Shown piece by piece: positions 1 to 36,759 of a DNA stretch of 64,000 nucleotides. The notes under the pieces were generated by a model that searched no databases, was not told where the DNA came from, and saw only the letters and a program-made list of their open reading frames with translations. Within the stretch, counting starts at the first letter, position 1. Every line of letters starts with the position of its first letter. The translations under genes and the position numbers were made by a program. The DNA is taken from assembly GCA_963575745.1 (NCBI GenBank), contig CAUYUJ010000256.1, positions 1 through 64,000 of the forward strand. Direction: 5' to 3'. This stretch comes from Prorocentrum cordatum (Eukaryota).

Positions 1-29
1 GCCCGCGTCGGCGCCGCCGCCGCAGCCAT
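1..29 (-). CDS. 5' end (MAAAAAPTR...) of another copy of the Rep-like gene, running off the left window edge
   Basis: Positions 1-~450 align with 8335-~8800. The ATG at 29-27 corresponds to the Rep ATG at 8363-8361. Confidence 0.75.
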
Positions 30-741
30 TCCCCCGCACGGCCGCGGCCCTGCGCGCCTGCGAGCCTGCGGGCCAGACGGCAGCGACGATGACGGCGGCG
101 GCGAGGGCGACCCGCGCCTGCGACCCCGCGCCCGCGACCCGCGCCAGCGACCCGCGCCAACGACCAGCGCCCGCGACCCGCGACCGCGATCCGCGCCCGC
201 GACCCCGGCGCGCGATCCCCGCCCGCGAACGGCGACAGCGACCCTCGCTTGCGACCCGCGCGACCGCGACCAACGCCCACGACCAGCGCCTGGCGACCCG
301 CGCCCGCGACCCGCTAAATTCCCGCAGGGGCGGGGGGGAGGGGGCGGAGGAGGGCCGGGGGGCGACGCCCCCCAGCGGCGCGCGAGCGCCCGCAGCCGCT
401 CACTGCTCGCGACGCGGCGCGAGACCGCGGGAACCCGCGCCCTCACCAGCGCCTTGCCGACCCGCGAGAACCAACCCGCGCCCGCGACCCAACGCCCCGC
501 AGGCTCGAAACGGTGGATGTGGGTGTACCCGCTCGTTGCGACTACGACCCCCGCCCCGAAACCTGCCCTGGGCGACCCGCCCGTCGACCTCTGGCGGCCC
601 GCGCCGTGGCGCGAGCCGCCTTGGTCTCGCCCGGACATCGCCTGACTTTAAAACCTCCCACCCCAGTGCCATTACCAGTGACTTACCAGTGAGACTTTAC
701 CAGTGACTTACCCCAGTGACTACTCCGCCCACTCTATAATT
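1..741. mobile_element. Right-hand end of an upstream unit (unit A) of the Rep+transposase tandem element
   Basis: Homologous to 8335-9026: Rep start, CGCGACC-rich tract and iteron arm. The sequence is noisier than the downstream copy. Confidence 0.8.
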
Positions 742-923
742 CACACACGGGGCACATGCGATCAATATAATTCCTCTTCTGATGCTAGAGAGAGAAATTT
801 GTGAGTGCCGCAAGCGCCCCGCCTGTCAATTTATAAGGTGGGCGAGGTAAGTCACTGGGTAAGTCACTGGTAAGTCACTGGTAAGTCACTGGTAAGGCAC
901 TGGGGTGGGGGGTAAGTCACTGG
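641..923. repeat. Large imperfect palindrome with inverted arrays of 11-bp CCAGTGACTTA repeats (junction of units A and B)
   Basis: Left arm ~641-741 (degenerate CCAGTGACTTA repeats), right arm 828-923 (TAAGTCACTGG repeats). The spacer is nearly identical to 9027-9112. Confidence 0.9.
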
Positions 924-1257
924 GGCCCGCGGGGGCCCTGCGGACCTGGCGGCCAAGGCCGACGAGGGCCCCGGCGGGCCCGGGCGGGCCTGGCGACGGC
1001 CCTCCCGGTGCCTCCCCTCATCCTTCCTCGGGCGACGCGCCTCGGGCTCCGCCTGGCTTCGTCGCTTCCCCCCCCCTGCCCCCGTCTGCCCCGGCCCGCG
1101 CGCGCGGGCTGAGTTTTCTGGCGGTGGCCCGCCTGGCACAGAAAACGGACCGGCCCCTCGCTCGTAGGAGGCGGGCCAGATCTCGTAGAACGGCCGCGGC
1201 GAGTTGCCCGCGGAGAAAACTGGAGCGCCCGCGCGCGCGGGCACGAGGGGCCCATTT

Positions 1258-2414
1258 CTAACCCTCGATCTGGCCGCCCTCGGCCGCCACCAGTCGCTGG
1301 CACCGCTTCTTCATGCCCCCGATGCTCTTGCTCACCATGTCCGAGGGAATGCTCTTGGCCGTGCGCTTGAGGCGCCGGATGAAAGCGGCGCGGGTCTCGC
1401 GCTTGCCCGCGGGGAACGCGCGCTCCCGCGCGCGCATGCGCGAGTTCACCTCCCGCCACAGCCAGTAGTCGCGCACGTTCAGCTGCGGACTGTGGGCAGG
1501 GATCTCGAACGCCTGGATGCCGGCGCGCTGCTTGGCGGCGACGCCCTTGCTGGCCTTGAAGCCGGACGGGTCGTTGTCCTCGAGGACGCGGAAGCGCTTC
1601 GTCCCAGGGTACTCCGCCTTGAGCGCCTTGAGAATCGGGCCCTCGTAGATCCGCGCGGCCTCGGAAGCATTCCAATTCCCCTGGATCTCCTCCCACACCA
1701 GCACCTTCCCGCTGCCCACGCCGGCCAAAATGTGCACCCCCTTCGCGCCCGTGTTGTACTTCAACTTCGGATTGGGCTTCACGTAGCCAGCGTTCAGGCC
1801 CTCGCCTGGGCGGCGGATGACGCCCCGCGTGCCCGACTGGGCCACGTGGCGACGCGCCCTGCCCGTGAGCAGGACGGGGAAGAACTTCACGTCGATGTGC
1901 ATATGCACGTGCGACTGCCACCACGACACGGGCTTCCCCTGGTACTTCTCCCCGAACTCGAGGCGGCCCTGGATGTCCTCGTCCGTCAGCAGGGGCTTGT
2001 GGCGCATGGCGTAGAAGCGGTACCCTTTCTCGTGGAGCCTGCGCGCAATGGTGGCCTCCGAGGCCTTGCACCGCGAACTGGTCTTTTGAGGAGACGGGGG
2101 GAGGGAGGGGGGGCAAGGGCAGCTGGGAGGGAAGAGAGAGGGGGGGAGTTTGGAGAGCGCCAGGTCACCTCGTACTCTCCGTTGGCCTTCTTGATCAACC
2201 TCTCCAGGTGGTTGATGAGATTGGCCACTTGAGCCTCGCTGAGGACATTCTTACGGCCAGTGGTCTTCTTCAGGAAGTTGTCCTTGATGAGGCGGGTGAT
2301 GGAGGACTTGTCGCGGTGCAGATTCGCCGCGATGTCGCTGGGCGCCATGTCGCCGTTGGTGTACCACTCCTGGGCCAAGCGAATCTCCTCCGCGGTCATC
2401 GGCGCCCCGGGCAT
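1258..2414 (-). CDS. IS630/Tc1/mariner superfamily transposase (DD35D), copy 1; interrupted by a G-rich stretch at ~2088-2157
   Basis: N-terminal HTH-like segments (MAPSDIAANLHRDKSSITRLIK; SEATIARRLHEKGY), then RHKPLLT and catalytic motifs HIDVKFF, VLEDND and HSPQLNVRDYWLW. About 363 aa when reconstructed with copy 2. Confidence 0.9.
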
Positions 2415-2569
2415 GGCTGGGCGGCGGGCGCGGCGCGCGGGGATACACGGCCGGGCGGGGCCGCGCACGCGGGTCTTAAAGGACGGATTGCTGCGCGGAT
2501 GCATCGGGACTCACATCAACTCGGGGCATTCGGAAAGTGAGCGCCTGGCACCGCCACCCCCTGCATTGC

Positions 2570-2860
2570 CCCGCTGGCTGCCGAATCTGCTGTGGGGTCG
2601 GCCGCCTCGTTGTTCGCATCGGTTGCTGCCTCGTCTGCTGCCTGGGTGGCTGCCTCGTCGCTTGCCTCGTTTGCTGCCTTGTTGGCTGCCTCGCTGGCTG
2701 CCTGGTTGGCTGCCTCGGTGTTTACCTTGTTTGCTGCCTCGTTTGCTGCCTTGTTGACTGCCTCGTTGGCAGCCTGCTAAGGTGCCTCGTGTGTTGCCGT
2801 GTCGACTGCCTCATTGGCTGCATCGTTGGCCATTTGGGCAACGACCTCGCAGGCTGCAGT
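2570..2860 (+). repeat. ~12-bp degenerate minisatellite (GCTGCCTCGTTG-like)
   Basis: Periodic (G)CTGCCTCGT units; also present at ~10830-11110. Confidence 0.75.
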
Positions 2861-3549
2861 GGCAACGAACTTTCCCTTTCACCTGGCCATGGTCCGTCCT
2901 ACTCTGTTCCTTCCCCAAACAATGCTTGTACCTCGGGGGTCTTACTTCTCCCCGAAATGCCTGGGCACGGTGGCTCGTTCGGCCGCCTCGTGGCGGCCTG
3001 TCACCGCCAGTCGCTGCCCGTCGCCGCCCATCGTTTGCTGAACATAGATTGCACCGCATAGATCGCTGACGCTGCAAGATGGATTGCACCACATCGAGTC
3101 CACCACAATAATTTGCTTAGCATAGCTTGCACCACATAGACTGCACCGCATAGATTGCACTACTGAGATTGCTCCGCATAGCTTACACCACACGCATGGA
3201 GTCCATGCTGGCTCTAATTCAATAGTCAATCGGCGCCCCCCTGTGCCCTCCTGTGGAGACGGAGACCGTCTCCGCACGATCCGCAGGAACGTATCGGCGC
3301 CGACGAACGCAAGGGTTCCTTCTAGAAACATCCAGCACCCCGAAAGTTCTAGGGGGAATGGGCGCCTGTGTTGCCACCCCTGGCCTATCCTCCGCACGAC
3401 CTTTCACCCCGCATCCCATAATCCTCGTCCCTCTGGCCCGTCCCCTCCCACTCCTCCTCCTCCTCCTCCTCCTCCTCCTCCTCCTCCTCCAGTTCCTCCT
3501 CCTCCTCCCCCTCCTGCTCCTCTGCCTCATCCTCATCCTCGCCCTCCAT

Positions 3550-3870
3550 CCTCTATCAACCCTCGATCATCCCCCGAACCTCCATTCTTGATGTAACGTC
3601 GAACCTCGATCCTCGATCCTCGAACGAACCTCGACCCTCAATCCTCGATCAAGCTCCAGTCTCGATCCTCGATCCCCCCTCACACCTCGACCTTCGATCG
3701 TCGATCGAACCTCCATCCGCGATCCTCCGTCAAACCTCGATCTCCGAAGGAATCTTAATCCTCGATCGTCAATCAAACCTCGGTCCTCGATCACGAATCC
3801 TTCGTCGCACCTCCATCCAAGATCCTCGCACGACCTTCCTCCTCCCCTCCACCTCGCATTCCACGATCCT
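3550..3870 (+). repeat. CCTCGAT-based short-period repeat flanked by (CCT)n tracts
   Basis: Many CCTCGAT(C) units; duplicated at ~11830-12150. Confidence 0.75.
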
Positions 3871-4676
3871 CGTACCCCTGCTCCAGTTCTCTCCACCTCC
3901 TCCTCCTCCTCCTCCTCCTCCTCCTCCTCCTGCTCCTCCTGCTCCTCCTCCTCCTCCTCCTCGTGCTCCTCCTCCTCCTCCTCCTCCTCCTCACTCTCAT
4001 CCTCGTCTCTGTCCTCGTTCCCGTGTCCTCGTCCTCGTCCTCATTATGCTCCTCTTCCTCCTCCTGCCCCTCCTGCTCTTCCGCCTCGTCTCACTCCTCC
4101 CCTCATCACTCCACTCACCTCCCTTGATGAGGCGTTGGGCGTAAGATGGAAACGTCGAAAGTGTTCAATCCCAAACGTACGGTGCGCGGTGGTCAGGTAC
4201 CCTTTCTATGCAATGCGATGTCTATAGAATGCCATGCAATGCCCAGCAATAGTTTGCCACGCGAGGTAATGACATGCAATGCCATTCAAAGCGATACGAT
4301 ACTATAAACTGTTCTGCTATATGTTGCAGTGTCGTGCCAAGCCCACCCATAAAATGCAATGCAACGCAATGCAATGCAATTTCATGAGGATGGAATTCTG
4401 ACGCAGTGGAGTGCGGGGGGAGGAGGAGCGATGGAAAGAAGCCCCCTCGCTCTGATCAGCATGACGGTGGCCGCCGGGAGCCCGACCACACCCTCCAGCA
4501 TACGTCGTCATCGTCGTCGTCATCGTCCTCGTCTCGTCCTTGTCCACGTCGTCGTGGTCGTCGTCGTCGTCGTCGTCGTTGTCGTCGTCTTCGCCGTCCC
4601 CGTCGCCGTAGCCGCCGCCCTCGCCATCGTCGCCGCCGTCGCCGTCGGAGGGTCAGGGCACGCGTCGGCCGAGCAA

Positions 4677-5455
4677 TGCCGAAAAGTGCCGAGGAATACC
4701 GAAGAGTGCCGAGGAGTGCCGGAAAATGCCGAGGAGTGCGGCGGAGTCCCGAAGAGTGCAGAAAAATGCAGAGGAGTGCCGAGGAGTGCCGAAAAGTGCC
4801 CAGGAGTGCCGAGGAGTCCGGAAGAGTGCCGAAGGATGCCGAGGAGTGCGGAGGAGTGCCGAAATGCCGAGGAGTGCGGAGGAGTGTCGAAAGGTGCCGG
4901 AGTGCGGCGGAGTGTCGAAGATTGCCGAGGAGCGCCGAAGAGTGCCGAGAAGCGCCGAAAATTGCAGAGGAGTGCCGAGGAGTGCCGAGGAGTGCCGAGG
5001 AGTGCCGAAGGAGTGGCGAACAGTGCCGAGGAGTGCGGCGGAGTCCCGAAGAGTGCGGAGGAGTGCCGAGGAGTGCCGAAAGTGCCGAGGAGTGCGGAGG
5101 AGTGTCGAAAGGTGCCGGAGTGCGGCGGAGTGTCGCAGATTGCCGAGGAGTGCCGAAGAGTGCCGAGAAGCGCCAAAAATTGCAGAGGAGTGCCGAGGAG
5201 TGCCGAGGAGTGCCGAGGAGTGCCGAAGGAGTGGCGAACAGTGCCGAGGAGTGCGGAGGAGTGTCGAAAGGTGCTGGAGTGCGGCGGAGTGCCGAGGAGT
5301 GCCGAAGAGTGCCGAAGAGTGCCGAGCAGTGCCGAAAAGTGCAGACAGGAGTGCCGAGGAATGCCGAGGAATGCCGAGGAGTGCCGAGGAGTCCGGAGGA
5401 GTGCCGAAAGATACCGAGGAGTGCGACGGACTGCCGAGGAGTGCTGAGGAGTGCG
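4677..5455 (+). repeat. 10-bp minisatellite (GAGTGCCGAG), followed by (GTC)n to ~5695
   Basis: Directly visible tandem GAGTGCCGA(G/A) units; these produce the spurious VPRSAEECRG ORFs. Confidence 0.9.
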
Positions 5456-5514
5456 TCGTCGTCGTCGTCGTCGTGGTCGTCGTCGTCGTCGTCGTGGTCG
5501 TGGTCGTCGTCGTT

Positions 5515-5546
<32 letters not shown>

Positions 5547-5553
5547 GGTCGTG

Positions 5554-5592
<39 letters not shown>

Positions 5593-5965
5593 CTCGTCGC
5601 CGCCGTCGCCGTCGTCGACGTGGTCGTCGTCGCCGTCGTCGTCGTCCTGGTCGTCGTCGTCGTCGCCGTCGTCGTCGTAGTCGCGGTCGCCGTCGACTCC
5701 CTGTTGCCCTGCACTCCTCCCCAAAGCGGACTGCTTGAAGAAACGCGAGTTCGTAGATCCGCTTTGTGCTCCCCTCTCCCTCCTTCCTGGCCCCCGCCCC
5801 TTTCATTCGCAACTGATGGCTGCTACGGCGTGCAATGACGATGATGCTGATCACGATGGTAATGATTTGGTGACAGTCATGAACACGAACACGAATCTTG
5901 AGCCAACGGCGCGGTTCGGCCTGCAGACGCGGGCCGTTATTTAACTTCTGCAATCTAAAATGTGT

Positions 5966-8363
5966 CTAACACCTCAATTGTGGCAACGGCGGCGCGGCAC
6001 TCGCAGACAGCACCCGTCTCTGTTGCAAGGGCAGCAAACTCGCCCACGACGGCAAGGCCGCCCAATCGTCCGCCGTTAGCTCCGAGACACTGGCCGCCCC
6101 CACGGCCAGGGCATCGTCGTGCAAGGCGTTCGCCACGTCATCGGGGATGGAAACGCGGCGCGTCAGGGCCAAGAGCCCCTCCACCCCTGCGGCCGCGGCG
6201 CCGCCGCCCGCGGAGCGGAGCTGCGGCGAGGGCTGCGGCGGGGCGGCCGGCGCCCCATTGGCGAACGCCGTGGCGGTGGCGACGAGCCACTTGCACCAGT
6301 TCTCCCGGCAGGGCGGCACGGTGCGCAGCTGCGCCTTGGTCAAGGGCACGCCGTCGGCCGTGAACTGCTCGAACCTGTTCTGCAAGTGAGCAATGTCCTC
6401 GGCGCTCACACCGCCGCGCGGCGTCCACAAGCCCTTCAACTTCGACGTCACCGCCATCCCCCGGGCCCAGCACGCGTCAGGGTTCCCATCGTGGAACCGC
6501 TGCGACACCTGCACTTCCATGCACTGCCCACTGAACAACTTCAACTGCGTTGAAACCGGGAGCGTGGGCCGACCGGTCGGCAAGGAGGCATACTCCACGC
6601 AAGAGAACTCGTCCAGGTACATGAACCTCTTGCCCGGCTTCGTCATGTTAGCCAACGGCATGTTCGCGCCAACGGCCGGCTTGTGGAGCACGTGCGTCTT
6701 CCCAAATACGACGTCGATGGGGTCCAACATCGTGCTCTTGCCAGTGTTGCTGGCCCCGGCGATCAGGGGCACCCGCGCCGTCTTGCTGGGCCCCTCGGCG
6801 ATCACCTTCGCCAGACAATGCGCCAGCTGGCCCTCGGGGACCATCGTGTTCCGGACGAAGAAGGACCGCGCCGCCTCCTGCCAGAGGCAGCGGCCGTCCG
6901 CACACTTGCACGACTCGCCAGCCACGCGGCAGATGACCTCCCAGTCGCTCTGGCGCTCCTCTGCCGCGGCCCGCGGGGCGTCGCTCCACTCCCTCGCCTC
7001 CGCGAGCAGAGTGACCAGCTGCCCCTGCCTTCGGGGGCGGGAGCGCACCGCCGCCGGGAGCCCAGGAGCCCCGATCCTCGGGGCCCCTGGAGACGCCTCG
7101 GAAGCCCTCGGGGGGGAAGCGGGCCATCTGGCAGAAGCAAAAACGCCCCGGGGACACGCCGCGAGGCCCCCCAGGGCCATGGCCGCAGAATCTGGCATAC
7201 AGTGGGGCCTGGGCGAGCGCGTTCCCGCTCCTGGCGCCTAGCTCCCACCCAGCGCTGGATCTCCGCACTGCCGTTCTCCTGCACGTGCGCCAACACGGCG
7301 CTCTTGGTCCACAGACCCTCGCTGATGACCAGCGCCTTGAAGTCGACATTCGTGAACCTGACCCGCTCCTTCTTGGACCCCGTCTCCTCGGCCACCTTGG
7401 CGGCCTGCTTCTCGGCCTCCTCCCGCCGTCTCTTGAGGGCTTTGGCGTTGAAGGGTTCCTGGCTGGCTTCGTACAGGTTCAAGGAGGTGCCCTGGCGCGA
7501 CCAGGCCAACGGCTCGTCGTCGACCTGGAGCTTTCGGGGCGTCGTAAAAACCCCGTACCGAACAGCGCTCCAGAACATGGTGTGCGTGGCGCTCCAGTGC
7601 GACGCCAACGCGGAGCGGGCTCGCAGGGCCAGCTTAAAGGGCAAGAACGACGCCTTGTTAGTCAAGCGCAGGGCCACGTGGAAGTGGCGCGGCTCCTCGA
7701 GGAACACCACCATCGACTCGACGCCGACGGGCTCGTTGAGGGGCCTGCCGCCCTTGCGAGACGACGCCGGGGGCGAAACTCGACAAAGGGGCTCCAGACA
7801 AATTACGTTTATCTCGCTGGGAACGGAATCCAAGGTCTCGCGGGCCCGGGGCGGCCAATCGTGGCGCAAAAATCGAACGTTGAAGCTTCCTGTCGAGCGT
7901 CTTCCTCCCAGCGCTGTCTAACCCTGGTCGACTGCACAGGGTTGGCCACGGCGTCCAGGATGGCGTCCCGGATCTGCTCTCGCGAGACTTCGTCTAAGGT
8001 CCTGAGGGCGGGTCCGCCGACGGCGGCCGCGGCCTCGGCGGTCCCTGGGAGCGTCGGCGCGAAGGTGACCAAGTAGACCCACTGCCGAACCTTCGCGTTC
8101 TCTGGGGCGCCCCAGTCTGGGCCAACGGGGCCGGCGGCCACCGCGGCCTGTGCGCCCTCCGGGGTCGACGCTTGCACTGCGGCGCGGAGGATCTCTCCGA
8201 CCTCCTCCCGCCTGTCGTCCAAGCCGTCAGGCTGCAAACCCAAGTGGGCCGCCAACCTGTGCCTGAAGGCCTTGACACTGATGGCCGCGAGCTCGACCCC
8301 CCGGAGCAGAGCCCTCGACGCCTCGTCCAGCTGCGCCCGCGTCGGCGCTGCCGCCGCAGCCAT
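5966..8363 (-). CDS. Three-exon rolling-circle replication initiator-like protein, ~672 aa: DEK-C-like domain, HUH endonuclease, superfamily 3 helicase, SAM-like C-terminus
   Basis: Predicted exons 8363-7923, 7752-7238 and 7028-5966 (2019 nt) join in frame. Intron 1 is GT-AG (7922-7753) and intron 2 is GC-AG (7237-7029). Motifs: VYLVTF (RCR I), RHFHVAL (HUH), VRYGVFTTPRK (candidate Tyr), GASNTGKS (Walker A), FMYLDEF (Walker B), AVTSK (motif C position), LQNRFEQF (Arg finger). Confidence 0.82.
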
Positions 8364-8439
8364 TCCCCCGAACGGCCGCGGCCCTGCGCGCCTGCGAGCC
8401 TGCGGGCCAGACGGCAGCGACGATGACGGCGGCAGCGAG

Positions 8440-8880
8440 GGCGACCCGCGCCTGCGACCCCGCGCCCGCGACCCGCGCCAGCGACCCTCGCCAACGACCG
8501 GCGCCCGCGACCCGCGACCGCGATCCGCGCCCGCGACCCCGGCGCGCGATCCCCGCCCGCGAACGGCGACAGCGACCCGCGCTTGCGACCCGCGCGACCG
8601 CGACCAACGCCCACGACCAGCGCCTGGCGACCCGCGCCCGCGACCCGCTCAGGGAGGGGGCGGAGGAGGGCCGGGGAACGACGCCCCCCGGCGGCGCGCG
8701 AGCGCCCGCAGCCGCTCGCGACACGCGCGACCGCGACCCGCGCCCGCGACCAGCGCCTGCCGACCCGCGACCCGCGCCCGCGACCAACGCCCGCAGCTCG
8801 AACCCAGAACCCGCGGGCGGCACGCGCCTGCGACCTACGACCCGCCCAGAACCTGCCCTGGGCGACCCGCCGGCGACCTG
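8440..8880 (+). repeat. GC-rich CGCGACC/CGACCCGCG short-repeat tract between the Rep start codon and the palindrome
   Basis: Dense recurrence of (C)GCGACC(C); homologous tract at ~105-580. Confidence 0.7.
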
Positions 8881-8930
8881 CTGGCGGCCCGCGCCCGTGG
8901 CGGCGAGCCGCCTTGGTCGCCGCGGACTCG

Positions 8931-9208
8931 CCAGTGACTTACCTCCCACCCCAGTGCCTTACCAGTGACTTACCAGTGACTTACCAGTGACTTACCCAGT
9001 GACTTACTCCGCCCACTCTATAAATTCACACACGGGGCACATGCGATCAATATAATTCCTCTTCTAATGCTAGAGAGAGAAATTCGTGAGTACCGCAAGC
9101 GCCCCGCCCGTCAATTTATAAGGTGGGCGAGGTAAGTCACTGGGTAAGTCACTGGTAAGTCACTGGTAAGTCACTGGTAAGGCACTCGGGTGGGAGGTAA
9201 GTCACTGG
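8931..9208. repeat. 278-bp imperfect palindrome with six 11-bp iteron-like repeats per arm (junction of units B and C); candidate origin or abutted terminal inverted repeats
   Basis: Arms 8931-9026 and 9113-9208 are reverse complements, with 5 mismatches in 96 bp by manual comparison. The 86-bp spacer also contains symmetric pairs (CGGGGC/GCCCCG, TGCG/CGCA, TCTA/TAGA). Confidence 0.93.
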
Positions 9209-12200
9209 GGCCCACGGGGGCCCCGCGGACCTAGCGGCCAAGGCCGACGAGGGCCCCGGCGGGCCTGGGCGGGCCTGGCGACGGCCCTCCCGGAATGAAT
9301 GCCCCCCCTTATCCTTCCTCGGGCGACGTGCCTCGGGCTCCGCCTGGCTTTGTCGCTTCCTCTCCCCTTCCCCCGTCTGCCCCAGCCCGCGCGCGCAGGG
9401 TGAGTTTTCTGGCGGTGGCCCGCGCTCTGGCCCCGAACGGCCGCGGCGAGTTGCCCGCGGGGAAAACTGGGGTGCCCGCGCGCGCGGGCACGAAGGGCCC
9501 ATCTCTAACCCTCGATCTGGCCGCCCTCGGCCGCCACCAGGCGCTGGCACCGCTTCTTCATGCCCCCGATGCTCTTGCTCACCATGTCCGAGGGAATGCT
9601 CTTGGCCGTGCGCTTGAGGCGCCGGATGAAAGCGGCGCGGGTCTCGCGCTTGCCCGCGGGGAACGCGCGCTCTCCCGCGCGCGCATAAGCGCCGAGTTCA
9701 CGCTCCCGCCACAGCCAGTAGTTCGCACACGTTCATGCTGCGGACTGTGGCATGGATCTCGAACGCCTGGATGCCGGCGCGCTGCTGCGTGCAGCTTGCA
9801 CGCCCTTGCTGGCCGTTGAAAACAAGCCGGACGGTCGTTGTCCCGAGGACGCGGAGCGCTTCGTCCCAGGGGCCTCCGCCTTGGGGTGGTGGGGGGGTGG
9901 TGGGGAGGTGGGGCGTGAGGGGGGGGGTTGTGTGGGGGGGGGAACGCCTGGAGAATCGGGCCCTCGTAGATCCGGCGGCGCCTCGGAGAGCATTCGCAAT
10001 TCCCCTGGATCTCCATCCACACCAGCACCTTCGCCCCGCTTGCCGGCCAAAATGTTGCACCCCTACCAGACCCGTGTTGTAACTCAAACTTCGATTGGGC
10101 TTCACGTAGCCAGCGTTCAGGCCCTCGCCTGGGCGGCGGATGACGCCCCGCGTGCCCGACTGGGCCACGTGGCGACGCGCCCTGCCCGTGAGCAGGACGG
10201 GGAAGAACTTCACGTCGATGTGCATATGCACGTGCGACTGCCACCACGACACGGGCTTCCCCTGGTACTTCTCCCCGAACTCGAGGCGGCCCTGGATGTC
10301 CTCGTCCGTCAGCAGGGGCTTGTGGCGCATGGCGTAGAAGCGGTACCCTTTCTCGTGGAGCCTGCGCGCAATGGTGGCCTCCGAGGCCTTGCACCGCGAA
10401 CTGGTCTTCAGCATGCGCCAGGTCACCTCGTACTCTCCGTTGGCCTTCTTGATCAACCTCTCCAGGTGGTTGATGAGATTGGCCACTTGAGCCTCGCTGA
10501 GGACATTCTTACGGCCAGTGGTCTTCTTCAGGAAGTTGTCCTTGATGAGGCGGGTGATGGAGGACTTGTCGCAATACAGATTCGCCGCGATGTCGCTGGG
10601 CGCCATGTCGCCGTTGGTGTACCACTCCTGGGCCAAGCGAATCTCCTCCGCGGTCATCGGCGCCCCGGGCATGGCTGGGCGGCGGGCGCGGCGCGCGGGG
10701 ATACACGGCCTGGCGGGGCCGCGCACGCGGGTCTTAAAGGACGGATTGCTGCGCGGATGTATCGGGACTCCCATCAACTCAGGGCATTCGGAAAGTGAGC
10801 GCCTGGCACCGCCACCCCCTGCATTGCCCCGCTGGCTGCCGAATCTGCTGTGGGGTCGGCCGCCTCGTTGTTCGCATCGGTTGCTGCCTCGTCTGCTGCC
10901 TGGGTGGCTGCCTCGTCGCTTGCCTCGTTTGCTGCCTTGTTGGCTGCCTCGCTGGCTGCATGGTTGGCTGCCTCGGTGTTTACCTCGTTTGCTGCCTCGT
11001 TTGCTGCCTTGTTGACTGCCTCGTTGGCAGCCTGCTAAGGTGCCTCGTGTGTTGCCGTGTCGACTGCCTCATTGGCTGCATCGCTGGTCATTTGGGCAAC
11101 GACCTCGCGGGCTGCAGTGGCAACGAACTTTCCCTTCCACCTGGCCATGGTCCGTCCTACTCTGTTCCTTCCCCAACTTGCACCTCGGGAGTCGTATTTC
11201 TCCCCGAGAGACGTGGGCACGGTGGCCCGTTCGGCCGCCTCGTGGCGACCTGCCACCGCCAGTCGCTACCCGTCGCCGCCCATCGTTTGCTGAACATAGA
11301 TTGCACTGCATAGACCGCTGACGCTGTAAGATGGATTGCACCACTTCGAGTCCACCACAATAATTTACTTAGCATAGCTTGCACCACATAGACTGCACCG
11401 CAAATAGATTGGCACTACTGAATTTGCTCCACATAGCTTACTTACACCACACAGCATGGAGTCGCATGCTGGCTCTAAATTCAATAGTCATCGGGCCCGC
11501 CCCTCCTGTGCCCTCCTGTGGAGACGGCGACCGGTCTCCGCACGAATCCGCAAGGAACGTATCGGCCGCCACGAACGCAAGGGTTCCTTCTAGAAAAACA
11601 TCCAGCACCCCGACAGTTCTAGGGGGAATGGGCGCCTGTGTTTGCCACCCTGGCCTATCCTCCGCACGACCTTTCCCCCCCGCAATCCCATAATCCTCGT
11701 CCCTCTGCCCGTCCCTCCCACTCCTCCTCCTCCTCCTCCTCCTCCTCCTCCTCCTCCTCCTCCTCCTCCTCCAGTTCCTCCTCCTCCTCCCCCTCCTGCT
11801 CCTCTGCCTCATCCTCATCCTCGCCCTCCATCCTCTATCAACCCTCGATCATCCCCCGAACCTCCATTCTTGATGTAACGTCGAACCTCGATCCTCGATC
11901 CTCGAACGAACCTCGACCCTCAATCCTCGATCAAGCTCCAGTCTCGATCCTCGATCCCCCCTCACACCTCGACCTTCGATCGTCGATCGAACCTCCATCC
12001 GCGATCCTCCGTCAAACCTCGATCTTCGAAGGAATCTTAATCCTCGATCGTCAATCAAACCTCGGTCCTCGATCACGAATCCTTCGTCGCACCTCCATCC
12101 AAGATCCTCGCACGACCTTCCTCCTCCCCTCCACCTCGCATTCCACGATCCTCGTACCCCTGCTCCAGTTCTCTCCACCTCCTCCTCCTCCTCCTCCTCC

Positions 12201-12458
12201 TCCTCCTCCTCCTGCTCCTCCTGCTCCTCCTCCTCCTCCTCCTCGTGCTCCTCCTCCTCCTCCTCCTCCTCCTCACTCTCATCCTCGTCTCTGTCCTCGT
12301 TCCCGTGTCCTCGTCCTCGTCCTCATTATGCTCCTCTTCCTCCTCCTGCCCCTCCTGCTCTTCCGCCTCGTCTCACTCCTCCCCTCATCACTCCACTCAC
12401 CTCCCTTGATGAGGCGTTGGGCGTAAGATGGAAACGTCGAAAGTGTTCAATCCCAAAC

Positions 12459-12461
<3 letters not shown>
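9113..12461 (-). mobile_element. Truncated third unit (unit C) of the composite element
   Basis: Colinear with 828-4180. Homology stops at CCCAAACGTAC, where the (TAC)n tract begins. Confidence 0.85.
9505..10672 (-). pseudogene. Tc1/mariner-type transposase copy 2: N-terminal half intact, frameshifted over ~9670-10100
   Basis: Same protein as copy 1 up to YVKPN, then many small indels and a G-rich patch (~9880-9945) that could be read errors. Confidence 0.8.
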
Positions 12462-22310
<9,849 letters not shown>

Positions 22311-24724: not shown

Positions 24725-26108
24725 CCTCCTCCCCTCATCCTCCCCCGCCTCCGTCCCAGGAGGGCCGCTCGCAGACTGTATGAAGGGGCCCTGGGACACA
24801 CAAATAAATACACACAAATAAAAAGATTCCCCATAGTTTCATGTATTTTCTGGGTTTTTGTCTTCCCGCCCAATTCCCATATTTTCCCATATTTTCCAGG
24901 GAATCGACGGTTAATTATGTGTGTGTGTGTTCCCCTCCTGACTGTAGGGGGCCTCGTGCCGTGCCTCCGCTGGCGCGCGGGGAGCCGCGCTCGCCCGACG
25001 AGGACTATTCCTCCTCCGCCGCCTCCGCCCGCCGGGGGCGTCTTCGAGAGAAGGAATAGCTCGGCGGAAGGACGAAAACGCCAGCATGCGCCTGCGCTCC
25101 CAGGACCAGTCCCCGCGCGCGGGGTCGGATTGTGCGAACGTCGCAGGTGCCCCAAAACCGTTGGCCCACACTCCAGACAATTGACTCGACCTAGGTCATC
25201 AGAACTTCGCCTCGGCGACAGCTCTCTAAACCGAATGCGTGACTGCTTGCTCACGTGTTTTGTGGCTTGTGTGTTAGGGCTTGGGAAATCCCGCTGCGGC
25301 ATGTGTTTCCTATTGTTGGCAACGCTTGGTCGTCAACGCCTCCTGGTCCTCAACTCTAGCAGGTTGTTTTGAGTTCTGCATCATGCTGCTTATCTTCGCC
25401 TGTTTGTCTATGTTACGTGCTCCACTCGTGCGACGGATGTTCTTGGCAAGGGTTCATTGGACAAGAAACCAAAGACCATCACAACGGCCAAAATCCCTTG
25501 ACCGTGTAGGGGGAGGGGGGGAGATCAGGACTCGACCCGAACATTGACCCTGGCGCCCCCTCAGAAGACGCAGACGCCCCGGGATCTTGCCCTCCGACCA
25601 ACTCTTCTCAATCAATGCCCCCGCCGTGCGCATGCTCGAACTCTCCCGTCCGATGGCACGATGGCACATGTGCCGCGTAGGCGTCACACATGTGTTGGGC
25701 GCAGCATCCCCTTCCGTACTTCTCCTTCGCTCGGCGTGCCCCGCTCTCTTCTGCGCCTGCGTCCCGCTGGCATGAACTCCGCCTTCTCTCCTTTGCGCCT
25801 GCCCGCGCCTGCGTCCGCACCCACCGTGGCCCAAGCGGCTCGCGCTGAGTAGCCCTGCAGGCATTCGCGAGGCGTCGACGGCCCGGCCCCTTTCAGCGCC
25901 GGCACCCCGCGCGGCCCAAGCGGCTCGCGCGGAGTGGCGCCCTTTGGGCCTCGGGCATGGCTCGACGGGGCTCCCGAGGCTGGGCAAGGGAGCCCCGGCG
26001 TGCGACTCCAGACCTGCAGTGCACGTGGACACTGCTGCATCCGCCGGCCGGCCTCTCGATACCCCTTGGCCGCTGCTAGTGCTTGCTCTGGGCGGGCGCC
26101 TTCCTCAC

Positions 26109-27683
26109 CTGCGGGAAGTCCTCGGCAACGAGGGCCGCAGTGTCACTCCAGTCCTGCCTCTGGCAAATCCTCCTCAGGAACATGCCTGCCTCTTCGTTGG
26201 GGCGCCGATTCCCTGGCGTCATCACGTTGCACATCGCGACGGCATCATCGTACCTCTTGAGCTTGACGCAGCAAAACACTGCGTCGTGATAGGTGGCGCG
26301 GTAGGGGCTGATCTGCGCCTCAAGCATCTCATTGAAAAGGGCCAGTGCCTCCTCCAGCTTGTCGTTGGCGACGCAAGCCCTGACCACTATCTGATAGGTT
26401 TGGGCGTTTGGCTCCACCCGCAGGCTAGGCCCGTCCTTGAGCAGCTGCATGGCCTTGTCCATCCTGCCGAGCTCGCAGTAGGCGGTGAGAGCCGCGTTGA
26501 AGTGCACCCGGTCGGGGCGGACTCCCCGCTCGGTGAGCTCGTCGTAGAGCGTCAGCGCGAATGCGGGGTCGCTCCACTGGTACGCGGACATGATGCAGCG
26601 GTACGCCGTCCAGCTGAGGATGATGCCCTCCTCCAGAGAGCAGAAAACAGCCAGGTCTACGGAAACAAACAGTGGCATAGACTTTGAACTCAGATGTCCG
26701 CGCGGATTGCTCGGATCGGCGCTGGACCCCCCTCCCTGGCGTGCGGAGCGCGCCAGGGGCAGCGCCGAAGGCGCCGCCAGGGGGCCCCAGCGCCAATCCG
26801 AGAAATCCGCGCGGACCTCCGAGTTTTTGATGCTCCTGCCAAGGATTGTTCCCCTGAGGCCAGCCCTGGGCTCCGAAGGGAGCCGCTTGGGTGCCACCAG
26901 GGCCGCCCCGGCAGTGCCCTGACCCAGCAGCCGTGGAACGGCCGCCTCGTGGCCACAGCGGATCGGGCCTCCAGGGCCTCGGGGCGCCAAGGCTCCAGGC
27001 GGACTGGGCCGACCCGAGCGCTGACCGGTTTCTTCCCGATGGCCCTTTCCCGATGGAGGAGGAGGAGGAGGAGGAGGAGGAGGAGGTGGAGGAGGAGGAG
27101 GAGGAGGAAGAGGAGCAGGAGGAAGAGGAGGAGGAGGAGGACCCGATCCTCCCTCATCTTGACGAAGTACGCCACGACGTGCTCTGGAAGCTTGCTCCTC
27201 CACGCGACGATCAAGTGGTCCTGGGCACCGACCGCGGGCGAGAGCCCGTGTGCCCGGATCGCGTCGAGGAGCCGGAGGCCATCTTGCCGCATGCGCTCGT
27301 CGCCGATGCTGTGCACGACGAGCTTGAAGAACCTGACGGCGGTGCGCCGGTCGATCGCGTGCTGGGAGTCCGCCACCCCCTCGGCGGCGGCGCGCACAAG
27401 GAGGTAGCGCGAGGGGTGGTGCACAAGAAGGAGGCGGGGGAGCTTCCGAGGGGGAGGGAGCCTTCTTGGCAGCCTCCAGGCCCCTCTGAGAAAGTCCCTG
27501 CCTTCTCAGAAGATCCTCGCCGCCTCCTTAGAAGCCCCTTCCCCCCCCTCGCGCCACGCCCTTGTGCGCACCGCCGGCCTTGGTGAGCATCACGTCGAAG
27601 ATCTCCAGCGCGGTCTCCGCCAGGTTGCGCTTGTTGCAGACGTCCATCGCCACAGCGAACGACGTGACGGTGGGGCTCGCGTC
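26109..27683 (-). CDS. Spliced pentatricopeptide-repeat (PPR) protein, internal exons
   Basis: Exons 27683-27579, 27379-27149 and ~26627-26109 join in frame with GC, GA and GT donors. PPR motifs include GVRPDRVHFNAALTAYCELGRMDKAMQLL and VEPNAQTYQIVVRACVANDKLEEALALFNEM. Possible further exons at 25854-25809 and 24307-24267 are tentative; the 5' end was not located. Confidence 0.85.
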
Positions 27684-28756
27684 CTGCCAGAGCCGACGGC
27701 AGGGTGGGAGGCAGGGAGCGGCCGGGGCACGAGGGTCGCGCGATCTTGCGCCCTGCGCGCGCGCCTGCAGTGTCTGCGCGCGGGAGCCGTGCCTCAGCGT
27801 CGGGAAGCGCGCTTCGAAGGGGGCCGGGGCAGGGAACGCGAGGACGTCTGGCCCCCACGGGGGCCCAAAGTCTGGCCGATATCGGCGCGCCCCCACGGCA
27901 ACGCGGACCCCAGCGTCCTGTAGATGATGGAGCTCCGCCGAGGTGTCCGCCAGCGCCTTCACGGCCGAATCCGAAATAATCGGATGACGCCAGCACTGAA
28001 CTCTGGTAAATGCTATGGGGGTGCTGCGTTCACTTCCGCGCGGGCTTCCGCCAGACCCCTGCCAGGCTTCACACGCGGCAGATGGAGCCGCCGTCGTTTT
28101 ACTTTACGCTCGCTGGCTTCTAAGGGCGTTCCGCTAGCTTCTGCTGGGGGAAGAGGGCGAGTTTCATCCCTCGCTCCCTTGACGAAGAGCATGTCTTGAA
28201 CGACTCGTAAAAATATCTGAGACGGCTCTTCCCCCCAGTCCTGCTGGCAGGAGCCAGCGCTAGGCCACCTCAAACCCCCAGCCGGCTCCAAGGGCAATTT
28301 CTTTCCCGACGCTCGGAGGCGGGCCAGCACAGACAGTCAAAACGGATAGCTAGGATGCGCGATAACGATGAAGACCCTTGGACGCCCATGTCGAAGCTTT
28401 TCGAGCGGGGCTGACCGTCAACAGTGGTTAAGGATGGACCGAAGAGGCAAGGATACCGGGGTGCCGTTGGGAAGGTTACCCGTGCTTATCTTCGATTCCA
28501 GCGTCAGCTCCTTGCTCCCGGCTGCTCATCTTGCCCAGGTCCCTTCAGGCAAGTGACCCATTCTGCAAGAGTCCCTTGGGATGGTTATCTATCCTGCTCC
28601 TCATCCTGCAATGGTACCCTTCAGAAGAAAAATAAAACGCATGAAAAGAAAACTTCGATGGTCCGCGTGGAGTTCTTGGATCTGCGCCAAGGGGGGGCCA
28701 AAGGCGCCCCCAGGGGGCCCCAGCGACGATCCGAGGAATCCACGTGAAACTTCCGA

Positions 28757-29218
28757 ATATATATATATATATATATATACATATATACATATATATACAT
28801 ATATATAATTTTATGTATGTGAGTGAGTGAGTGAGTGAGTGAGTGAGTGAGTGAGTGAGTGCATGTGTGTATGTGTGTACGTGTGTATGTGTGTATGTGT
28901 GTGTATGTGTGTGCGTGTGCGTGTGCGTGTGCGTGTGCGTGTGCGTGTGCGTGTGCGTGTGCGAATGGGTGTGTGGGTGTGGGTGCGGGTGTGGGTGTGG
29001 GTGTGGGTGTGGGTGTGGGTGTGGGTGTGGGTGTGGGTGTGGGTGGTGTGGGTGTGGGTGTGGGTGTGGGGTGTGGGGTGTGGGGTGTGGGGTGTGCGTG
29101 TGCGTGTGCGTGTGCGTGTGCGTGCGCGTCTCCGCGTGCGCGTGCGCGTGCGCGTGCGTGTGCGTGTGCGTGTGCGTGTGCGTGTGCGTGTGCGACTGCG
29201 CGTGCGTCTGCGTGTGTG

Positions 29219-29250
<32 letters not shown>

Positions 29251-31410
29251 TCTGTGCGCCTGTGCGTCTGTGTGTCTGTGTGTCTGTGTCTGTGTGTCTG
29301 TGTGTCTGTGTGTCTGTGTGTCTGTGTGTCTGTGTGCCTGTGTGTCTGTGTGTCTGTGTGTCTGTGTGTCTGTGTGTCTGTGTGTCTGTGTGTCTGTGTG
29401 TCTTTGTGTCTGTGTGTCTGTGTGTCTGTGTGTCTGTGCGTCGTTGTGTCTGTCTGTGTGTCTGTCTGTAAGTCTGTCTGTGTGTCTGCCTGTGTGTCTG
29501 TCTGTGTGTCTGTTTGTGTGTCTGTCGGCGTGTCTTCCTGTGTGTCTGTATGTATGTCTGCCTGTGTGTCTGTCTGTGTGTCTGTCTGCGTGTCTGTCTG
29601 TGTGTCTGTCTGTGTCTGTCTGTGTGTCTGTCTGTGTGCCTGTCTGTGTGCCTGTCTGTGTGTCTGTATGTGTCTGTGTCCGTGTCTGTATATGTGTCTG
29701 TGTCTGTGTCTGTGTCTGTGTCTGTGTCGGTGTCTGTGTCTGTGGCTGTGTCTGTGTCTGTGGCTGTGGCTGTTTCCGTGTCCGTGTCTGTGTCTGTGTC
29801 TGTGTCTGCGTCTGTGTCTGTGTCTGTGTCTTGTGGTGTGTTGTGTTCTGTTCTGTTCTGCTCTGATCTGTTCTGGTATGTTGTGTTGTGTTCTGTTGTG
29901 GTGTGTTGCGTTGTGCTGTGCTGTGCTGTGCTGTGTTGTGTTGTGTTGTGCTGTGGTGTGGTGTGGTGTGGTGTGCTGTGGTGTGTTGTGCTGTGTCGTG
30001 TCGTGTTGTGTTGTGGTGTGTTGTGTTGTATTGTGGTGTGGTGCGGTGTGTTGTGTTGTGCTGTGTTGTGGTTGGGTTGCGTTGCGCGCGCGAGAGCGTG
30101 CGTGCGTGCGTGCGTGCGTGCGTGAGGGCGTGCGTGTGTGTGTGTGTGTGTGTGCGTGCTTGTGTGTGTGTGTCTGTGTGTGCGGGGTGGTGGGGTGGGG
30201 AGGTGATGTGTGTGGTGTGAATGGTGTGCGTGGGGTGTGTGTGTGTGTGCGTGTGCGTGTGTGTGTGCGTGTGCGTGTGCGTGTGCGTGTGCGTGTGCGT
30301 GCGCGTGTGCGTGCGCGTGCGCGTGCGCGTGCGCGTGCGCGTGCGCGTGCGCGTGCGCGTGCGCGTGCGCGTGTGCGTGTGCGTGTGCGTGTGCGTGTGC
30401 GTGTGCGTGTGCGTGTGCGTGTGCGTGTGCGTGTGCGTGTGCGTGTGCGTGTGCGTGTGCGTGTGCGTGTGCGTGTGCGTGTGCGTGTGCGTGTGCGTGT
30501 GCGTGTGCGTGTGCGTGTGCGTGTGCGTGTGCGTGTGCGTGTGCGTGTGCGTGTGCGTGTGCGTGTGCGTGTGCGTGTGCGTGTGCGTGTGCGTGTGCGT
30601 GTGCGTGTGCGTGTGCGTGTGCGTGTGCGTGTGCGTGTGCGTGTGCGTGTGCGTGTGCGTGTGCGTGTGCGTGTGCGTGTGTGCGTGTGCGTGTGCGTGT
30701 GCGTGTGCGTGTGCGTGTGCGTGTGCGTGTGCGTGTGGTGCGTGCGTGCGTGCGAGCGTGCGCGTGCGCGTGCGCGTGCGCGTGCGCGTGCGCGTGTGCG
30801 CGTGTGCGCGTGTGCGCGTGCGTGTGCGTGTGCGTGTGCGTGTGCGTGTGCGTGTGCGTGTGCGTGTGCGTGTGGGTGTGGGTGTGGGTGTGGGCATGGG
30901 GGTGGGTGTGGATCTGGGTGTGGGTGTGGGTGTGGGTGTGGGTGTGGGTGTGGGTGTGGATCTGGGTCTGGGTGTGGGTGTGGATCTGGGTCTGGGTCTG
31001 GTTGTGGGTGTGGGTGTGGGTGTGGGTGTGGGTGTGGGTGTGCGTGTGGGTCTGGTTGTGGGTGTGGGTGTGGGTGTGGATCTGGGTCTGGGTCTGGGTG
31101 TGCGTGTGGGTGTGGGTGTGTGGGTGTGGGTGGATGTGTGTGTGTGTGCGGGTGTGGGTGTGGGTGTGGGTGTGGGTGGGTGTGGGTGTGGGTGTGGGCG
31201 TTTGCGTGTGTGTGTGGGTGGGTGTGGGGGGGGGTGGGGGTGTGTGGGTGTGTAGGTGTGTGGGGTGGGTGTGTGTGGGTGTGGGTGTGTGTGGTTGTGT
31301 GGGTGTGGGTGTGTGGGTGTGTGTGTGTGTGGGTGTGTGGGTGTGTGGGTGTGTGGGTGTGTGTGTGTCTGTGAGTGTGTGTGTGTGAGTGTGTGAGTGT
31401 GTGTGTCTGT
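28757..31410 (+). repeat. Compound (AT)n then GT-rich microsatellite block (GTGA, GTGTGC, GTGTGG, GTGTCT, GTTGT units)
   Basis: Directly visible. Confidence 0.95.
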
Positions 31411-31574
31411 CATTGTACGTTTCTCTATACCCATCCTTATCATCGATATCGGCTGTATCTCCCTGCTCGCAGACCCCCCACGTCGCGATTTTGTTCACAA
31501 CGTTGACCCCTTCCGGACCGGTTTCTCGTGCCGAGTCGTTTTCTGACGGCCCCGAGGCCCGATCAGGGCCCCTG

Positions 31575-32951: not shown

Positions 32952-33039
32952 TAGGGGGCCACATGCGAACGAAGTGAACCCCACCCTCCCCCTCAGAAAT
33001 CGCGGGGGGGTAGGGAGAGGGTTCGCATGTGGCCCCCTA
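32952..33039. mobile_element. 88-bp miniature inverted-repeat element with 19-bp perfect TIRs and 5-bp flanking direct repeat AGCCA
   Basis: TAGGGGGCCACATGCGAAC (32952-32970) and GTTCGCATGTGGCCCCCTA (33021-33039); AGCCA at 32947-32951 and 33040-33044. Confidence 0.75.
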
Positions 33040-34506: not shown

Positions 34507-34540
<34 letters not shown>

Positions 34541-36572: not shown

Positions 36573-36639
<67 letters not shown>

Positions 36640-36661
36640 AAGAACGACGACGACGACAAGA

Positions 36662-36759
<98 letters not shown>

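Follow-up and report, generated by a model that had tools for sequence, protein, structure and literature searches.

We analysed the first 64,000 nucleotides (nt) of contig CAUYUJ010000256.1 of the dinoflagellate Prorocentrum cordatum (assembly GCA_963575745.1, forward strand; hereafter the window), whose leftmost 12.5 kb consist of a head-to-tail repeat encoding a putative replication initiator (Rep) and a Tc1/mariner-type transposase (Tnp). Self-comparison gave a period of 8247-8334 nt with segments 92-100% identical, corresponding to about 1.5 copies of a ~8.3-kb unit plus the edge of a third: copy 1 spans ~1-8334, copy 2 runs from 8335 to ~12462, and positions 1-300 match 8335-8634 at 98% identity with a spacing of 8334 nt. 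The open reading frame (ORF) at the left edge (1-29, minus strand) ends in ...MAAAAAPTR, the N-terminus of Rep, and is the same as 8335-8363; it is the start of the preceding unit's Rep gene, cut by the window edge, and a further unit therefore lies to the left of the window. The unit is GC-rich (61-72%), and the named proteins nearest to those of the window come from Prorocentrum cordatum. By tblastn, the window holds one copy of the Rep gene and two of the Tnp gene, all on the minus strand, in agreement with a preliminary description of this DNA, which had reported two co-oriented genes in a unit repeated in tandem. Homology between the two unit copies stops abruptly at ~4180 in copy 1 and ~12462 in copy 2, where a (TAC)n satellite begins.

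The Rep gene (8363-5966, minus strand) is real and is spread over three frames, in the overlapping ORFs 8363-7809, 7869-6802 and 7198-5966, which are colinear with intronless homologs of 585-676 amino acids (aa); the frame changes fall where these homologs run continuous. Exon 1 (7923-8363, within ORF 7809-8363), delimited by homolog alignment, carries a DEK_C-like N-terminal domain (Pfam E-value 0.0011 and below cut-off on the window Rep, above cut-off in the homolog P0071) and motif I, WVYLVTF. It is followed by an insert of 170 nt with GT...AG borders (7753-7922), located from the frame map at a point where homologs read ...PV..GGRP... ungapped. Exon 2 (7231-7752, within ORF 6802-7869) holds the HUH motif HFHVAL, the catalytic tyrosine motif VRYGVFTTPRK and a helical linker. 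The second insert (within 7025-7248), again placed by the frame map where homologs are continuous, can be drawn as 7230-7025 (206 nt, GA-AG) or as 7248-7025 (224 nt, GT-AG), either length restoring the frame. Exon 3 (5966-7024, within ORF 5966-7198) encodes the superfamily 3 (SF3) helicase, with Walker A GASNTGKST and Walker B FMYLDEF, a C-terminal helical domain and the stop codon. Judged from the reading frames and the splice-site letters, both inserts appear intron-like and would be removed by splicing.

ORF 5966-7198 retrieved 29 homologs with E-values down to 1.8e-195, and the nuclease ORF matched 381 representative proteins at E<=1e-3, indicating a large family. The E, HxH, RY and K columns and the lysine of Walker A are invariant across 26 aligned Rep relatives, which share a single conserved RY motif; across 48 sequences H-x-H is invariant and the tyrosine nearly so, and the alignments also have an invariant D column. 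Sequence-only naming yielded no more than sub-threshold matches in Pfam and PHROGs, and a profile of the 26 relatives searched against PDB sequences returned P-loop noise only. For the structural route, we used an AlphaFold2 model of P0007, the closest full-length homolog (53% identical to exon 3; mean predicted local distance difference test score, pLDDT, 87). Its best Foldseek match was full-length adeno-associated virus (AAV) 2 Rep68 (E 7.5e-10, 545 columns, 13% sequence identity), and the helicases of bovine papillomavirus (BPV) E1, AAV Rep40 and parvovirus B19 (B19V) NS1 were matched as well (E 7.5e-10 to 1e-6, Rep68 included). A model of the nuclease region (P0038, pLDDT 90) was nearest to the Rep domains of CRESS-DNA viruses, namely those of vientovirus (Z 9.4, root-mean-square deviation 3.0, 111 residues aligned), the geminivirus tomato yellow leaf curl virus (TYLCV, 8.4), nanovirus (8.1) and circovirus (7.5), the CRESS-type matches ranging from Z 9.4 to 6.7 over 95-116 residues. 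These were followed by pMV158 RepB (Z 7.2-7.3) and by origin-binding domains from large T antigen, E1 and parvovirus proteins (AAV5, Z 6.3). Of the top 18 chains, 16 were Rep nuclease or origin-binding domains; Foldseek gave this model E-values of 1e-3 to 1e-2 at a probability of 1.00. A protein language-model search (ESM Atlas) placed parvovirus NS1 clusters nearby at 0.87-0.88, which serve as leads only, all named families scoring below 0.9. On these models, Rep is predicted to combine, in one fused protein, a CRESS-DNA-type HUH nuclease with a single tyrosine and an SF3 helicase of the type found in parvovirus Rep and papillomavirus E1, and the HUH-SF3 assignment given to this gene in the preliminary description is supported by both the invariant residues and the fold matches.

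Tnp copy 1 (1258-2414, minus strand) has a broken frame, split between ORFs 1258-2007 and 1986-2504, and its Pfam matches to DDE_3 and to helix-turn-helix (HTH) families all fall below cut-off. Alignment of the copies revealed a net 65-nt C/T-rich insertion at ~2086-2158, in the HTH region. In copy 2 (9508-10672, minus strand), delimited from ORF 9698-10777, tblastn pieces and the copy alignment, the N-terminal HTH half is intact (Pfam HTH_Tnp_Tc3_2, 42.6 bits against a cut-off of 31.5, E 7.4e-11) and the catalytic half is degenerate, with many indels and a 59-nt C-rich insertion. This last insertion (~9860-9920) is flanked by a near-duplicate 9-mer (CTCCAGGCG / CCCAAGGCG) and, from its sequence, looks like a small insertion with target duplication. 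An intact relative of 489 aa, P0210, is 90% identical to the window Tnp. Using the Rep alignment, we scanned JGI metagenome contigs, ocean samples included, and obtained 69 loci (designated L); among the relatives encoded there, HTH_Tnp_Tc3_2 exceeds the Pfam cut-off in L038 and L048 and DDE_3 in L005. The Tnp alignment reads D...(E)DND...SPxLNxxD(Y), with 35 residues between the second and third Asp by our own count. The earlier assignment of 2414-1258 to a DDD transposase of the Tc1/mariner type therefore holds, given the above-cut-off HTH match in copy 2 and the DDE_3 match and D...DND...D triad in relatives. Upstream of tnp lies a 12/24-mer array (2600-2828 and 10877-11079), which is translated in P0210 and P0211 as an (A-A-N-E)-like N-terminal extension.

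The two genes travel together. A Tnp relative on the strand of Rep was found in 19 of the 23 Rep-encoding metagenome loci of at least 4.5 kb, which collapse to about nine lineages. The other four comprise L050 (a distant DDE_3-like ORF) and L032 (a DDE_1, pogo-type, ORF), both co-oriented with Rep and at or below Pfam cut-offs, as well as L021 and the weak match L068, in which no Tnp relative was found. The pairing recurs in P. cordatum gene models: P0103 reads Tnp, Rep C-terminal half, full Rep; P0180 reads Rep-Tnp fragment-Rep-Tnp fragment-Rep; and P0010 has a Tnp N-terminus spliced to a Rep C-terminus. A model labelled Polarella glacialis (P0214) encodes Tnp, a very divergent Rep-like protein and Tnp, and the Rep family includes one Breviolum minutum gene model. 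Homologs that were unlinked elsewhere had been named beforehand as the observation that would reduce the pairing to a single chance nesting; they are instead linked in about nine metagenome lineages and in models labelled P. cordatum and Polarella. Family members occur on very large contigs, up to 2.7 Mb, and one genome harbours no fewer than three or four Rep-Tnp lineages that are deeply divergent; identity between the window Tnp and the Tnp section of P0103 is 36% across 245 aa. In the sense of rep, the unit reads iteron palindrome (PAL1), rep, hairpin module (PAL2, in most relatives), tnp.

Trees of Rep and Tnp were built from 17 rows (15 loci, P0103 and the window, the last represented by Rep exon 3 and Tnp ORF 1258-2007 only), leaving out L006, L010, L011, L028, L052 and L058 as near-duplicate or partial. 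Among 11 lineages the trees have 4 of 8 splits in common, a number reached by 1 of 5000 label shuffles, and the main conflict concerns the position of the L029/L038 clade, for which the Tnp arrangement is not rejected by the Rep data (approximately unbiased, AU, test, p 0.22); the comparison of gene trees that the preliminary description had proposed thus returned largely congruent trees. For the pair L009-L020, dN/dS is 0.126 for Rep and 0.154 for Tnp, with dS of 1.15 and 1.20 respectively. Two other unsaturated pairs lie at 0.12-0.15, one pair gave 0.285 for Tnp with Rep dS saturated, and one was saturated for both genes. Given the low dN/dS and the equal dS, both genes are maintained and are of the same age within the unit.

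The preliminary description had placed these genes between two inverted repeats of ~96 bp (828-923 and 8931-9026). Complementary arms do exist there (809-923 and 8931-9045, 115 nt, 91% complementary), and their role as the ends of the unit does not stand: arm 8931-9045 also pairs with 9094-9208, 48 nt away, and the full palindrome is present in both unit copies (alignment of 560-1010 with 8880-9300), so that the reported repeats come from two copies of a ~280-bp palindrome, the first being the right-hand arm of palindrome 1 and the second the left-hand arm of palindrome 2, which face each other. In a tandem array, an internal palindrome and a unit bounded by inverted repeats are the same sequence and relatives must decide; the window and every self-closing metagenome unit carry one internal palindrome per unit.

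Copy 1 of this palindrome, PAL1 (645-925), has a partly degenerate left arm, with iteron matches at 675-693 and 863-903 and an 11-mer array at 846-903 detected by Tandem Repeats Finder (TRF). Copy 2 (8931-9208) has its arms at 8931-9045 and 9094-9208; both contain roughly five 11-mers (CCAGTGACTTA) and, after these, a stretch with TATAAATT, and the centre measures 48 nt between full arms and ~123 nt between iteron arrays. A 19-nt probe spanning two iterons, with up to 3 mismatches, matched the window 10 times against 0.02 expected by chance. With a strict detector (the same 8-mer at least 3 times at 9-14-nt spacing and its reverse complement likewise within 450 nt), the iteron palindrome was found in 23 of 69 metagenome loci, each time just upstream of rep, and L014 and L066 carry looser iteron palindromes. 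Across the family, PAL1 measures ~210-280 bp, with arms of 4-7 tandem iterons of 11-12 bp that are lineage-specific and track phylogeny (CAGT-type in the window, L048, L045 and L003; ..ACAAC/ACAAT-type elsewhere), around centres of 98-173 nt (~115 nt in seven lineages) with a GC content of 30-49% against 50-64% for whole contigs. When half-palindromes beside unrelated DNA were sought, the sole matches were arms truncated at the end of a contig, and palindromes with enough flanking sequence on either side were all complete. The interval from PAL1 to the start of Rep contains an array of a 13-mer (GCGACCCGCGCCC; 107-314 and 8441-8648). Upstream of its own palindrome, L018 carries a second iteron cluster of another lineage's type (256-298, ACACAATC four times).

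The second conserved DNA element, PAL2, is a hairpin with the core C5-N-C5-N-TCAATGTT ... AACATTGA-N-G5-N-G5, located between rep and tnp (after tnp in L048). Its core was found in 26 of 69 loci, from all lineages, against 0.08 loci in shuffles, and the 8-bp core is identical in 13/13 aligned lineages, with compensatory changes at five stem pairs. The PAL2 loop of several lineages contains an ~18-nt motif of the GGATAAATAAACGCCCAT type, which is found again, inverted, in the outer arms; in L009 (4921-5160) it is present three times (outer left arm, loop, and inverted in the outer right arm), and it was also seen in the loops of L016, L034, L005 and L014. This triple layout is the arrangement expected of repeated protein-binding sites, a role that we predict from the layout. 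The PAL2 of L009-type units is a 231-bp module with 22-26-bp inverted ends. L011 and L052, which apart from this match those units at 98-99% identity, lack exactly the module: where it is present the sequence runs CCGG-[module]-CCGG, and where it is missing, CCGG. A search with the core pattern found no hairpin core in the window, and no second palindrome was found in window 2400-6000. At the place expected for PAL2, the window has a breakpoint (4177-4180), where homology with copy 2 ends (4060-4330 compared with 12342-12520).

We checked the window against the read archive using Logan contigs from four runs, comprising DNA of two organisms, one marine metagenome and one metatranscriptome. Such contigs are incapable of showing circles, starts or strands, and their zero cover over the palindrome bins 418-834 and 9175-9591 carries no weight. 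The window rep and tnp are covered at about 97-98% identity by contigs of the two organism DNA runs and the marine metagenome run, and the metatranscriptome run yielded short contigs that match parts of tnp at roughly 92-97% identity and leave rep almost uncovered. At 4177, contigs of runs X1 and X5 carry mutually inverted loose ends, which indicates an insert bounded by inverted repeats at this point in other genomic copies; the inverted repeat of these loose ends was not found in the window, whose empty site at 4177-4180 keeps one GTAC. Such filled/empty patterns would fit transposase-type excision or hairpin slippage alike. The only filled/empty pair carries CCGG, or GTAC in the window lineage, and not the TA that would be sought for Tc1/mariner elements. 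A metagenome contig of run X1 has the sequence of Tnp copy 1 without its 65-nt insertion (joint 2085>2159). Contigs of three runs (X5, X6 and X1) share the joint 1627>10491, with 9 other letters between its sides, which removes ~600 nt from within tnp; this is a tnp copy located elsewhere in the genome or genomes and derived by internal deletion. At a 14-mer array (GATTGCACCACATA) in window 3082-3192, the loose ends of X5 and X1 contigs (3121-3160) consist of longer runs of the GATTGCACCACATA repeat, and the length of this array therefore differs between genomic copies.

In nine of the 69 metagenome loci the two ends are exact direct repeats, 88-141 nt long (the k-mer size of the assembler), corresponding to circles or tandem units of 5.07-6.92 kb. 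Four more overlap themselves imperfectly (92-98% identity), which speaks for tandem copies or mixed populations more than for one clean circle. Several assemblies contain units that are 98-99% identical to one another. Only two large ORFs are conserved per unit, both intact and intronless in the metagenome units, and neither eight pairwise tblastx unit comparisons nor the unit ORF lists contained a third coding region, in line with the earlier remark that no capsid-like ORF is visible. Rep relatives were absent from the 2.9 million contigs of IMG/VR, from the 72,556 plasmid records of PLSDB and from phage records, and six units searched against Rfam gave no match. In L052 (6841-7893), the unit breaks off inside rep and passes through TTTAGGG-like repeats into AT-rich unrelated DNA, which may represent the end of an array, healed or next to a telomere, or else a chimeric assembly.

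We consider it probable, with some reserve, that the repeat in the window is a head-to-tail array, now decaying, of a replicative-integrative two-gene selfish DNA element, belonging to a family widespread in dinoflagellates and marine metagenomes. What the data establish are the parts themselves, the conservation of their linkage and order, their joint divergence, purifying selection acting on rep as well as tnp, and a topology that is either circular or tandem. From these we infer which protein acts on which site, where the nick is made, how the unit replicates (for which the preliminary description had proposed rolling-circle or rolling-hairpin copying), that a free circle exists and what the transposase acts on. 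In this scheme, Rep would bind the iterons, nick at the conserved hairpin and drive rolling-circle-type replication, producing circles and head-to-tail concatemers, and the transposase would supply chromosomal integration or mobilisation. The roles are assigned this way round because a circular or head-to-tail state fits a nicking-helicase initiator and is not made by cut-and-paste transposition.

Several observations weigh against such an element. The Rep and Tnp trees match in only 4 of 8 splits, and the PAL1 centres have no significant shared nick motif (TATATT in 6/13 sense and 4/13 antisense, a count of 6 being reached by 23 of 500 shuffles). No element end, target-site duplication or solitary or dispersed insertion was seen in the window or in the metagenome loci. 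Both window Tnp copies are broken and PAL2 is absent, so that the array, which looks decayed, may be inert. Contigs that seem circular can be collapsed tandem arrays, as the four imperfect overlaps and the window, itself an array, illustrate. The two intron-like inserts in the window Rep resemble host genes, and the RNA evidence is thin, coming from one metatranscriptome run and from parts of tnp only. Co-orientation and tandem repetition are themselves unspecific, since dinoflagellate host genes are commonly arranged in co-oriented tandem arrays according to the available sections of PMC11453091. A bolder version of the replicative-integrative element, which we put forward tentatively as possible and rather doubtful, is that the units are nuclear plasmid-like episomes of dinoflagellates and related marine protists, existing as unit-length circles replicated by Rep from a two-part origin (lineage-specific iteron palindrome plus invariant nick hairpin) and both inserted and excised as concatemers by their own Tnp.

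The unspecific arrangement is the starting point of one rival, in which Rep and Tnp are domesticated host genes, co-opted into co-oriented arrays where the palindromes act as promoters, terminators or processing signals and nothing moves or replicates itself. Co-oriented tandem arrays being the norm for dinoflagellate genes (available sections of PMC11453091), this would also accommodate the intron-like inserts, the purifying selection on both genes, members on contigs up to 2.7 Mb and a host PPR gene on the same strand 14 kb away. We nevertheless judge it unlikely, as the presence of three or four deeply divergent Rep-Tnp lineages, or more, in a single genome, iterons that change along with the proteins of each lineage, the retention of all HUH, tyrosine and Walker residues, the decay of unit copies by internal deletion and insertion and the recurrence of 98-99% identical units in several assemblies are behaviour of selfish elements and not of host genes with one function. 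At the other extreme, an unrelated transposon could have nested by chance beside a Rep gene and been duplicated locally; a single locus is visible in the window and both of its Tnp copies are damaged. With gene pair, order and strand recurring in about nine independent metagenome lineages and in P. cordatum- and Polarella-labelled models, and with congruent trees and equal dS, we rejected this candidate as hardly credible.

Two further rivals give one of the genes the leading part. If the unit were a Tc1/mariner-type transposon with Rep as cargo, the iterons or the outer inverted repeats of PAL2 would be transposase sites and the arrays the work of host recombination; the CAGT that starts the iterons of the window clade (window, L048, L045, L003), the usual tetranucleotide at Tc1 ends, would then make sense, as would the L009-type PAL2 (231 bp, inverted ends, CCGG flanks, precise absence from L011 and L052), the similar filled/empty pattern at window 4177 and the tnp deletion derivative seen in three runs. 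What makes it improbable is that head-to-tail or self-closing units are the family's usual state and are not a product of cut-and-paste transposition, that Rep is as conserved as Tnp and has diverged with it, and that five to seven contiguous 11-12-bp repeats per arm resemble initiator iterons rather than Tc1/mariner ends. The PAL2 sites moreover show a single palindromic 4-mer, which hairpin slippage would also give, and not the TA duplication made by Tc1/mariner elements. Integrated concatemers of an unknown single-stranded DNA (ssDNA) virus, making the array an endogenous viral element that either lacks a capsid gene or has one that escaped recognition, would agree with a nuclease domain nearest to CRESS-DNA Reps, a whole protein nearest to parvovirus Rep68, the language-model leads towards NS1, self-closing units of 5-7 kb and the head-to-tail concatemers in which AAV integrates. 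This we regard as very unlikely: the eight tblastx comparisons and the ORF lists contain no third conserved ORF, Rep relatives are absent from IMG/VR, phage and plasmid records, and what is conserved alongside Rep is a transposase gene instead of one for a capsid.

Beyond the repeat, the (TAC)n-type satellite that truncates unit copy 2 and forms the right end of the array was delimited by self-comparison, TRF and alignment of the copies to 12460-22000 (right end approximate, ~9.5 kb). It consists of many variant blocks with a GC content of 0.41-0.50, and GC skew is -0.39 to -0.64 over 12-22 kb. It is followed by an ORF with PPR repeats (26076-27203, minus strand; PPR_2, E 1.3e-18), a host-type gene on the strand of the element genes. 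Further right, ORF pairs recur ~20.6 kb apart between ~28600-38000 and ~49500-58800 (for instance 34426-35250 and 55070-55894), which suggests a second, larger duplication; the large ORFs tested in this region matched no Pfam family, and a gap of 100 N (49778-49877) lies within it.

We know of no eukaryotic element that pairs an HUH-SF3 Rep with a Tc1/mariner transposase. The preliminary description knew of no such pairing either, and a search of the full-text literature, including few subscription journals and with Repbase and Dfam outside its scope, found no description of it in dinoflagellates or elsewhere. The available sections of papers on Replitrons (PMC10288648), on viral horizontal gene transfer in Symbiodiniaceae (PMC9651163) and on dinoflagellate genomics (PMC11453091), and of Kazlauskas et al. 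(PMC6668415), carry no mention of such elements. The recurring Rep-Tnp pairing with its conserved hairpins points to an undescribed family of selfish DNA elements. If so, this group would join Helitrons and Replitrons among the few eukaryotic elements with an HUH nuclease, as the first whose unit unites an SF3 helicase with a DDE-type transposase, and would offer a route by which Rep-encoding replicons become chromosomal residents. The family may account for part of the tandem-repeat load of dinoflagellates, and supplies candidate cis sites (iterons and invariant hairpin) along with two intact enzymes in the metagenome units; dinoflagellates being hard to transform, a native replicon-plus-integrase module would be of practical interest. 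Were the units episomes, they would form a novel class of mobile elements in eukaryotes, one that links Rep-encoding viruses and plasmids to cut-and-paste transposons, and possibly a ready-made vector backbone for dinoflagellate genetics.

Among known systems, a classical Tc1/mariner element has one gene and measures 1.3-2.4 kb between terminal inverted repeats, with a TA duplication. The family described here resembles Tc1/mariner/IS630 elements in its Tnp, with HTH_Tnp_Tc3_2, DDE_3 and the D...DND...D triad, and differs from them in its second conserved gene, its 5-8-kb units and its tandem or circular state; ends and a TA duplication were not found in the window or the metagenome loci. Like Helitrons and Replitrons, it resides in eukaryotic genomes, codes for a nuclease of the HUH Rep class and has palindromic DNA motifs. 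According to the available sections of PMC10288648, Helitrons encode a two-tyrosine Rep with an SF1B (Pif1-like) helicase and Replitrons a one-tyrosine Rep with no helicase, neither having a DDE transposase; the present family combines a one-tyrosine HUH nuclease and, by fold, an SF3 helicase with a DDD transposase, and so departs from Helitrons in nuclease and helicase type, from Replitrons in its fused helicase, and from both in the transposase. Polintons, casposons, Teratorn (a piggyBac element combined with a herpesvirus, as presented in the available text of PMC10175614) and inoviruses carrying insertion sequences (IS3/IS30 transposases, in the available text of PMC6668415) likewise join a self-replication module to a DDE-type or other integrase, built from different modules.

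Like CRESS-DNA virus Reps, the family's Rep would have a compact single-tyrosine HUH nuclease fold and a fused SF3 helicase, and like CRESS-DNA origins its units have an invariant hairpin and lineage-specific iterons upstream of rep. It is unlike them in lacking a sequence-level match (Pfam sub-threshold), in its extra DEK_C-like N-terminal and helical C-terminal domains, in having no capsid gene, units of 5-8 kb, a transposase partner and chromosomal arrays, and in iterons that form a large palindrome separated by the rep gene from the invariant hairpin. Where the CRESS-type origin nonanucleotide would be sought, the PAL1 centres have a lower GC content and no significant shared motif, and the invariant TCAATGTT/AACATTGA hairpin lies elsewhere in the unit. 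Parvovirus Rep68/78 and NS1 are the best whole-protein structural match, with colinear nuclease and SF3 helicase, and AAV also has tandem initiator-binding repeats within a palindrome and integrates as head-to-tail concatemers. Set against this are the 13% sequence identity, a nuclease domain nearer the CRESS type (Z 9.4, against 6.3 for AAV5), no linear genome with terminal hairpins, no VP gene, and a repeat period of 11-12 bp compared with 4 bp. Rolling-circle plasmids of the pMV158 type match in the nuclease fold of RepB (Z 7.2-7.3) and in having 11-bp direct repeats as the initiator-binding locus and a separate nick hairpin; they are bacterial, lack a fused helicase and include no sequence relatives among the 72,556 plasmid records. 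By analogy, the inverted iteron arrays around a lower-GC centre may resemble papillomavirus and polyomavirus origins, and an invariant hairpin set beside lineage-specific iterons would mirror the way in which origins are organised in CRESS-DNA viruses and rolling-circle plasmids.

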